IMG/VR virus record: IMGVR_UViG_2537562231_000024
Coordinates: 1 to 6,035 of that record
Length of the DNA stretch: 6,035 nucleotides
Origin: a virus
Taxonomy: Duplodnaviria; Heunggongvirae; Uroviricota; Caudoviricetes
Strand: one strand, 5' to 3'
Part shown: positions 3,001-6,000 of the stretch, piece after piece
How positions within the stretch are numbered: the first letter of the stretch is position 1
How the letters are laid out: every line of letters begins with the position of its first letter
Position numbers: made by a program

Positions 3001-6000
3001 AATGGCTGGTTCCCGGATACAGATGGCGCACTCATCACCGGACTGACCTTTCTTGACCCCAAAGATGCCACACGGGTTCAGGGTTTTTTTCAGCATTTGC
3101 AGGTCAGGTTTGGTGGCGGGCCGTGGCAGGATGTCAAGGGGCTGGATGAAGTGGGCAGTGATACAGGCAGAACAGGAGAATGACATGAATATACTAAAAA
3201 AACTTATGCAGCGTCTGTGCGGTTGCGGAAAGCATGATGACCGTGAAAACGGGGAGTTACTTACAGCACAGCTGCGACTGGGACCGGCAGACATTCTGGA
3301 GTCAGATGAGAATGGTATTATCCCGGAGCAGGCCAGGGTAATCACGCAGGTGGTGATACTGGATGCGGATAAAAAGCAGATACAGTGCGTGGTAAGACCG
3401 CTGCAAATTCTGCGTGCTGACGGGACGTGGGAAAATATTGGCGGGATGAAATAGCCGACGGGTTCACAAAAACCGGAGTCCGGCTCCGGTTTTTGTTGTC
3501 ATGTAAGGCAGATGTGGTAATGAGAGCCAACTTACTGATAGTGTTTTATGTTCAGATAATGCCCGATGACCTTGTCATGCAGCTCCACCGATTTTGAGAA
3601 CGACAGTGACTTCCGTCCCGGCCTTGCCAGATGTTGTCTCAGATTCAGATTATGTCGCTCAATGCGCTGAGTGTAACGCTTGCTGATAACGTGCAGCTTT
3701 CCCTTCAGGCGTGATTCATACAGCGGCCAGCCATCCGTCATCCATACCACGACCTCAAAGGCCGACAGCAGGCTCAGAAGACGCTCCAGTGTGGCCAGAG
3801 TGCGTTCACCGAAGACGTGCGCCACAACCGTCCTCCGTATCCTGTCATACGCGTAAAACAGCCAGCGCTGACGTGATTTAGCACCGACGTAGCCCCACTG
3901 TTCGTCCATTTCAGCGCAGACAATCACATCACTGCCCGGTTGTATGCGCGAGGTTACCGACTGCGGCCTGTAGTTTTAAGTGACGTAAAACCGTGTTGAG
4001 GCCAACGCCCATAATGCGTGCACTGGCGCGACATCCGACGCCATTCATGGCCATATCAATGATTTTCTGGTGCGTACCGGGCTGAGAGGCGGTGTAAGTG
4101 AACTGTAGTTGCCTATGTTTTGCGGCAATGAGAGCAGAGATAGCGCTGATGTCCGGCAGTGCTTTTGCCGCTACGCACCACGCCTTCAGTAGCGGAGCAG
4201 GAAGGACATCTGATGGAAATGGAAGCCACGCAAGCACCTTAAAATCACCATCATACACTAAATCAGTAAGTTGGCAGCATTACCAGTTTTTTCGCATTGA
4301 TTATAAAATTCATCAATAATGCCTTGAATGTGGAATATATTCTTCTGGGGTAGGCCTCTTCACTAGAACATGTTCAATCTTTAGTTTCAGCTTCGTACAG
4401 AATACGAGCGGCTTCTTGCGTAACATTATACATTGCCTGCTCATCATTACCGCCAGCCCCAGCAATCGTCAATGCAACCCCAGCATAAATTTCTGGGTAG
4501 CTATGTGTAAATATATCCAGTGTATTTACATATTTCTCTTCCATTCCTGCATCATAACGAACCTTATTTATTCCCGTTGCCATTGATTGTGGTGGACTGG
4601 AGCCTTCTGCACGAAAATAGTGATGTGACAGATCCGAGATAGCTTTGCATCCTTCTGCTTGGCTTAAGCCTGGAGCGGCCCATGTCTTACCAAAATGCTC
4701 GGCAGCGTAACGTGTTGCAAGAGTGGCATCAGAGGAGGAACCGGATGTTCCGCTCATGACCGGTAGCCCAGCTTTATCACGCATAATTGTGCCGATATCT
4801 TGAGAAAGATCCATGCCTGTTGGTGTGCGGGTTGAGTGTGTACCGTTACGCTGAGCATCAATGCGGTTGTCTGCGCGGAATTTAACTCGCTCCTGAATCT
4901 TTAGCCTTCCAGCCAGCACTTGGCCAGTTTGAGCAAGCTCGAAACCAGAGAGTGCTTGTTCTTTTGTGAATGGACCTTCAGAACCGCACAGCATCATTGA
5001 GAAGGCAGAATGCGCACTGTCGGATAATTTTAGTCCACGACTACCGTAAAATGGTGAACCAGGTTTTGGCTCCTCTGAGCCAAGAGCCTCTTTGCCTAGC
5101 TGCTCGCGGTCGTTTCCATCCCAGCGTGTTTCCGTTTTCCAAAGGCCACGCTCCAGATGCCCCATCCATGCTGTTTGTTTGAATACAGGAGATTCTGGAT
5201 TGGTTAGCCCCTCAACGGTCGAACGCAGAATATTCTCTTCTGCTTTGCGATACCTCAGATAATTCTCTGCTCGTGTTTGCAGATGCTCTAATGATTTGTA
5301 ATTATTGTTGGAAAGTGTGATTTGTAGGAATGATCTAACAGTTATCGGCGAGTCAGCACCTGGCCGATAAGGTTGAGTTCCTATGTGGGCTTGGCTACAC
5401 AATCCATCCTTCAGAGTATTACTGTCAGTTGTATATATACCGATTTGTGAATCGCTTACAACTGGTTTGATTCTGTTCGGCATATCACTTGACGGTTTAT
5501 TATTTACGTTTTCATCATTTGGCCCAGTTGTGAGGAGTCCAGAAATACATCTTTGACTTAATTCGGGCTTTGCTGCAAACATATCTGCTATTCCTTATTT
5601 TATAAATGCATTTCCCTATTCTGGTTTGCATACATTTCTTGTGGCTAAAATAAACACTTGTCATCAATTTTGCAACCGTATGTTAACAAAATGAGTTGCT
5701 ATACCGATAAAGGGACACTTTTGCTTAGTTAACCACACCATTTTCTTCGGACATAGGAAATTCCCGGCATGTGGACGGGATTTTAGTCAGTGTATAAACC
5801 AGTCGTCCGCTGTTTCCCTGGCTTCCTGAAGTGTTTCCTGTACAAATTCGTGCGCGGACTCTTTATCTGTGGCTCTTAAAATAGTGAGTCCATCATTACT
5901 GGCAGATTTGATGATGATTTCTGCATTGTCATATCGTTTCCTGATACGGCGCAGCATTTCCTGTTGCAGGGCAGGAACAGAACCTTTTGGCATTTTGCTG

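Follow-up and report, generated by a model that had tools for sequence, protein, structure and literature searches.

A Frame-Broken IS1 Copy in a Draft Prophage Contig of Escherichia coli 3431: A Probable Sequencing or Assembly Error

The insB frame of IS1 is not expressed as a separate protein: the InsAB' transposase is obtained only via a −1 slip on the A6C heptamer, and InsA serves as the repressor (PMC12428005). Hence, a copy devoid of A6C makes no transposase unless its frames are fused. Such a fusion was engineered in A6C to GA2GA3C mutants, in which transposition went up ~900-fold. The mobilization in trans of an otherwise immobile IS1 requires raised InsAB' and is ~25-fold weaker than in cis (PMC12903888). 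According to the same source, IS1F of K-12 is reportedly all but immobile when transposase stays at its native level; this reflects the isoform or its setting and not lesions such as those described below.

Broken IS1 copies, real or artefactual, are commonplace, since several products of insA read out of frame have been recorded, e.g., KFZ98864.1 (Shigella flexneri) and UPI0002D39B0E. The latter reads LKLRPQSV, as would be expected if its A run lacked one base, and insA and insB would then be fused. In K-12, insB7 is annotated as a pseudogene.

The IS1 copy considered here resides in a stretch of 6,035 nucleotides (the window), which represents bases 1–6035 of the contig ADUM01000074.1 (120,573 bp), part of the E. 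coli 3431 draft assembly GCA_000184765.2. It shares the family and the domain order with canonical IS1 (IS1A/IS1E), and the insA, A6C, insB organization of its family is also that of K-12 IS1F. Unlike IS1F, which keeps the A6C site and the full insA, the deposited copy has lost both, and its change at the gene junction separates the frames, in contrast to the fusion in the engineered mutants. Its product falls in the same 90% cluster as KFZ98864.1 and UPI0002D39B0E, but the breakpoints of these two lie elsewhere and neither of them carries either lesion of the window. The original prediction, made from the sequence of the window, held that this copy is transposition-defective, probably immobile unless complemented in trans, and that this would freeze the junction it had created. 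The evidence assembled below suggests that the defect is probably an error of sequencing or assembly in the draft.

The IS1 Element and Its Prophage Neighbourhood

The window is the right arm of a lambdoid prophage and starts at the contig end, within gpJ. The C-terminal part of gpJ (1–1136) is followed by a lom/ail gene (1207–1806), a tail-fibre gene with collagen-like repeats (1871–3183), and its small C-terminal partner (3185–3454). Beyond the IS1 element, there are the 402-codon gene espV (4374–5582, minus strand) and a dinI-like gene (5787–6035). Several sources give the name EspV, a type III secretion effector, to the product of the former; the exact 402-aa sequence (“secretion protein EspV”) occurs on 322 contigs, and searches of it against Pfam and NCBIfam returned no match. 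The homology to the K-12 chromosome ends ~68 bp into mlrA (yehV), beside btsS, at contig base ~6261, shortly beyond the window. Hence, the prophage appears to be integrated at yehV, a site at which Stx-type phages of O157:H7 are known to insert.

The element itself is a real, ordinary IS1 of the IS1F/IS1X2 type inserted between the tail-fibre genes and espV. Alignment with intact copies delimits it to positions 3516–4284 (minus strand; 769 bp, against ~768 bp usual in the IS1 family) and places it in the IS1F/IS1X2 isoform group: it is 98.8% identical to the copies of 13E0780 and Z1323HEC0393 in the alignment, and pairwise comparison gave 98.1% identity to K-12 IS1F and 89.9% to IS1A. In line with this, close InsB fragments bear the NCBI name “IS1-like element IS1X2 family”. 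The ends conform to the family as well, with inverted repeats of ~23 bp and the GGTAATG start. The left inverted repeat, IRL (GGTAATGCTGCCAACTTACTGAT; 4262–4284, minus strand), is intact and identical in the aligned intact copies, and the right one, IRR (GGTAATGAGAGCCAACTTACTGAT; 3516–3539, plus strand), is, as shown by the alignment, a variant exceeding the usual length by one base, common to the copies found at the same site in 13E0780 and in contig JBFOBP010000006.1 of another assembly (see below). The right inverted repeat can also be written as GGTAATGAGAGCCAAC, and its extra base accounts for the 769-bp element.

The zinc ribbon, helix–turn–helix (HTH), and DDE domains follow in the order typical of the family, though they are spread over three frames: PF03811, PF12759, and PF03400 all gave strong Pfam matches, each in a different frame. 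The N-terminal zinc-ribbon ORF of insA (4113–4229, minus strand) starts with GTG at 4229, comprises 38 codons, and matches Zn_ribbon_InsA (PF03811, E 4.6e-20). The HTH domain (HTH_Tnp_IS1, PF12759, E 1.2e-27, residues 53–95) belongs to an ORF in the +1 frame (3929–4258, minus strand), which continues across the damaged junction and ends at a TGA. The insB frame encoding the DDE domain (3532–3927, minus strand) is again one further on (+1 with respect to the HTH frame). A TAA at the junction closes this insB frame, which is undamaged: it is the same as in the other assembly, and the match to DDE_Tnp_IS1 (PF03400, E 1.2e-73) is complete (2–131 of 131). The NCBIfam model transpos_IS1 matches all three pieces with different parts of the model, and its curated cut-off is reached only by the DDE piece. 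The displaced HTH frame, the +1 position of insB, and the intactness of the insB frame had all been described correctly in the original prediction.

Lesions in the Deposited Sequence and Their Distribution

Two lesions break the frames. The first one is a single extra base (A on the IS1 strand) at position 4114 (minus strand; alignment column 171), which turns ACA TGG into ACA TAG G. Because of this base, the frame of insA stops after 38 codons at the TAG in 4115–4113, i.e., at the CATAGG that had been noticed where TGG would keep the frame open. This base is missing from the copies of 13E0780 and Z1323, from IS1A and IS1F, and from the other assembly. The second lesion lies at the insA/insB junction (3967–3979, minus strand), where the window has TTAAAACTACAGG and four of the four reference copies have TTAAAAAACTCAGG; two A are missing and one A is inserted (a net change of −1 base), so the A6C slippery heptamer is lost, just as had been read from the sequence. 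Together, the extra base and the junction change leave the three domains in three frames. The indels were thus borne out by the alignment to reference IS1 copies (13E0780, Z1323HEC0393, IS1A, and IS1F) that the original prediction had proposed. Apart from them, the alignment and the comparison with the other assembly revealed two private substitutions on the minus strand, AAC>AGC (Asn20Ser) at 4171 and the silent CGT>CGC at 4122; the original prediction was silent on both, as well as on the missing target-site duplication dealt with in the last section.

With insA stopped, the A6C heptamer absent, and the domains in three frames, the deposited element cannot make InsA or InsAB'. An autonomous IS1 has an insA frame without interruption between its start codon and the slippery site, and A6C (AAAAAAC) with insB at −1; the deposited copy lacks both features, whereas the copy of the other assembly has both. 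As deposited, the element, both inverted repeats of which are intact, would depend for any movement on transposase provided in trans. It would appear, then, as an IS1 with complete ends and no transposase of its own, but the latter trait rests on bases that are probably wrong. The deposited bases are a direct reading, so chance is no issue; the question is whether these bases are correct.

Most E. coli carry multiple copies of IS1 (median, 11 places per genome), and the lesions were sought in a broad range of collections. Across 5,426 complete E. coli genomes with ~75,000 IS1 places, there was no copy more than 98.8% identical to that of the window, and the same was true of the PLSDB plasmids. 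Both lesion patterns were absent from 185,579 GTDB species-representative genomes and from IMG/VR, and the junction pattern (the second lesion) was absent from a scan of JGI metagenomes. For the 76-base stretch with both substitutions, the best IS1 match among 4,961 genomes was 74/76. At the protein level, the 102-aa product of the lesion-spanning ORF was encountered once in a collection of ~15 billion proteins, and that entry (EFU98682.1) belongs to E. coli 3431 itself; the exact look-up of the 38-aa ORF, the 109-aa ORF, the repaired InsA with Ser20, and the repaired tail-fibre protein found none of them in the collection. A functional isoform with the same organization, which would speak against the predicted defect, was likewise not found in the collections searched, and the literature search on the strain name 3431 or its WGS prefix returned nothing.

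The IS1 lesions have company in the same contig. Private one-base indels in short homopolymers were observed at 206 (+A, gpJ), 362 (+G, gpJ), and 2233 (−A, tail-fibre gene). They break up both gpJ and the tail-fibre gene, so that several ORFs result, although both genes are intact elsewhere, and they are missing from all relatives examined and from the other assembly; probably, they represent draft errors. Bases 4–1775 differ from the nearest complete genome by one substitution and two frameshifts. An error rate elevated over the whole contig was considered and ruled out: 7.7 kb of core genes on the same contig display zero frameshifts relative to K-12, and therefore the problem is local to repeat-type sequence. 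Drafts of that era were presumably based on 454 sequencing, though the argument for an artefact is independent of this.

Draft Error or Mutation

The most telling comparison is provided by the sister assembly, GCA_040813315.1, found via the exact EspV protein. Its 5.29-Mb contig JBFOBP010000006.1 agrees in gene order, IS1 again being the immediate neighbour of both espV and the tail-fibre genes, and is colinear with the draft contig over bases 4–13,927. The two show zero differences over 4172–13,927 (9,756 bp) and over 3410–3970, so both IS1 junctions are the same in the two assemblies. The sister IS1 (769 bp, with the same IRR variant) is identical to that of the window bar five changes, all inside 201 bp and three of them indels. 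It has the canonical layout, with an InsA of 91 aa, the A6C motif TTAAAAAAC, and an InsAB' of 232 aa, the last also being the length of the gene call. The copy of 13E0780 (NZ_CP020106), likewise of 769 bp, with the same tail-fibre-side junction and IRR variant, is annotated as intact with a programmed frameshift by PGAP. Both copies differ from the window in having ACA TGG, TTAAAAAAC, Asn20, and CGT. The genes of gpJ (1,163 aa) and the tail fibre (431 aa) are also whole in the sister assembly. Although by proxy of an independent assembly, the canonical frames of insA, A6C, and insB are thus restored at the very same copy, contrary to what the prediction of a defect implied.

Nine differences between the two assemblies, counted with the mosaic tail-fibre segment 2524–3409 left out, are all confined to 3,282 bp made up of phage or IS sequence, with none in the 9,756 bp (binomial probability 4e-6). 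The mosaic segment itself contains 28 substitutions and an in-frame length difference of 18 bases (2652–2669, in the collagen-like Gly-X-Y repeats); it can be ascribed either to recombination with a paralogous tail-fibre gene or to the mixing of paralogues in the draft. The sister assembly may come from a different isolate of the same clone.

Real mutation in a near-identical clone should not yield nine changes, mostly one-base indels, confined to repeat-type DNA, whereas draft errors would, and for this reason the artefact is favoured. According to the proposed scenario, both frame-breaking lesions and the two substitutions would be base-calling or assembly errors situated in the repeat-rich last 4.2 kb of ADUM01000074.1. 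The copy present in the cell would then be canonical, with an insA of 91 codons, the A6C slippery site, and intact inverted repeats, and its −1 frameshift would yield InsAB' of 232 aa. The lesions, their uniqueness, the intact sister copy at the same site, and the clustering in repeat-type sequence are established; from these, we infer errors rather than mutations. Hence, the predicted transposition defect and immobility without complementation hold true for the deposited sequence but likely do not extend to the living strain: the sister copy is canonical, and the defect is probably an artefact.

The foremost alternative, rather unlikely but deserving serious consideration, is that the lesions are real, i.e., private inactivating mutations which followed the deletion of nleA and left a non-autonomous IS1 without InsA or InsAB', mobile only if another IS1 gives plenty of InsAB' in trans. 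The deposited sequence itself speaks for it. Of the three indel events, two are insertions away from any homopolymer run, and two substitutions accompany them, unlike in the classic homopolymer error; the element sits 3.5 kb inside the contig and not at its very end. Furthermore, frameshifts are common in defective prophages, and frameshifted IS1 copies occur naturally, as exemplified by the insB7 pseudogene and the other frameshifted insA products mentioned above. The requirement of A6C-dependent −1 frameshifting for InsAB' (PMC12428005) and the possibility of mobilizing immobile copies in trans with raised InsAB' (PMC12903888) are also compatible with such an element. In principle, a long-read assembly polished against relatives could over-correct real frameshifts. 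On the other hand, the sister copy is intact and the adjacent 9.76 kb is free of differences; the draft-only indels outnumber the substitutions in near-identical sequence; and five changes are packed in 201 bp with none in the other 2.4 kb of 3410–6035, which is unlike scattered mutation. If the lesions were real, this would still be ordinary private pseudogenization.

Very improbable is a contig built by a mis-join, or as a collapsed consensus of at least two IS1 copies, with the junction and the odd bases as products of repeat assembly. The lack of a target-site duplication, the occurrence of the espV-side junction in 0 of 5,426 complete genomes, and the multicopy nature of IS1 would fit it. 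However, both junctions are present base for base on the 5.29-Mb contig of the independent assembly GCA_040813315.1, so the join is real and a mis-joined junction is ruled out. As for the odd bases, the reference isoforms agree at both lesion sites, and therefore a mixture of isoforms could not yield them; moreover, the product of the lesion-spanning ORF and the exact InsB fragment are each found on one contig only of the 3431 draft assembly.

Hardly credible at all is a functional three-frame layout whose transposase is made via two +1 recoding events (ACA-TAG-G and CTA-CAG-G) in place of the −1 slip: it draws on frame arithmetic only (each domain is one frame on, and all three are otherwise undamaged), whereas re-pairing of the P-site tRNA in the +1 frame is impossible at both sites, as judged by reading the sequence against known sites of the RF2 and Ty1 type, the layout is confined to one draft contig, and the sister assembly has a canonical copy at this site. 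The same slender chance is given to such a pair of recoding events or, in a milder version, to a real tight burst of five insA mutations in a clone otherwise identical over 10 kb. Two +1 recoding events, if true, would be a new mode of IS1 expression control.

Returning to the favoured reading, that of a draft error, the original prediction turns out to be a correct reading of a probably incorrect sequence, with nothing new in it. IS1 with its A6C frameshift is textbook material, as are decayed IS copies, and a private broken copy, even a genuine one, would be unremarkable. The lesson concerns data quality: calls of “defective” elements based on frameshifts in old drafts need reads or a second assembly, and such checks matter most for IS and prophage repeats close to contig ends.

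Loss of nleA beside the IS1 Copy

The flanks of the element tell more about the biology of the prophage. On one side, the IRL adjoins DNA normally upstream of nleA (4285–4373), as follows from the comparison with 13E0780. On the other side, the IRR junction (3455–3515), 61 bp downstream of the C-terminal tail-fibre gene, is shared with 13E0780 and GCA_040813315.1, and 13E0780 is the only convincing match to it in complete genomes. In 13E0780, unlike in the window, nleA still adjoins the IS1: relative to that genome, 2,118 bp including nleA (13E0780 locus 4491–6608) are gone at 4284/4285. The IRL/espV-side junction was found in none of the 5,426 complete E. coli genomes but, base for base, in GCA_040813315.1, so the deletion of nleA is real. 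The flanks ggcagatgt and agttttttc form no target-site duplication of 8–9 bp, a lack attributed to the adjacent loss of nleA; the IS1 of 13E0780 is likewise without one.

Presumably, nleA was lost by an IS1-adjacent deletion or by recombination between two IS1 copies flanking it. Each of these events, i.e., an IS1-promoted adjacent deletion or a two-IS1 recombination, would leave the observed structure, and the data fit both alike. The arrangement of 13E0780 and that of the window were also considered as steps of one nested deletion series, and this was rejected: the first 143 bp beside the IS1 of 13E0780 are unmatched in the reference prophage, and therefore only the difference between 13E0780 and the window can be stated. 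In CP034212.1 (locus 11496–11875), an IS1 fragment (InsA, 98 aa, opposite orientation) comes right after espV and is followed by different cargo, namely a 318-aa ORF and a gene for NleG; IS1 may insert repeatedly at this spot downstream of espV.

The notion that the defect of the element froze the junction is not needed. The junction of the nleA deletion is common to a copy that reads as intact, and thus it owes nothing to the supposed defect. Overall, the solid biological point of this locus is that the loss of nleA beside an IS1 is seen in at least two assemblies from a single clone, a loss typical of the IS-driven turnover of prophage effector genes.
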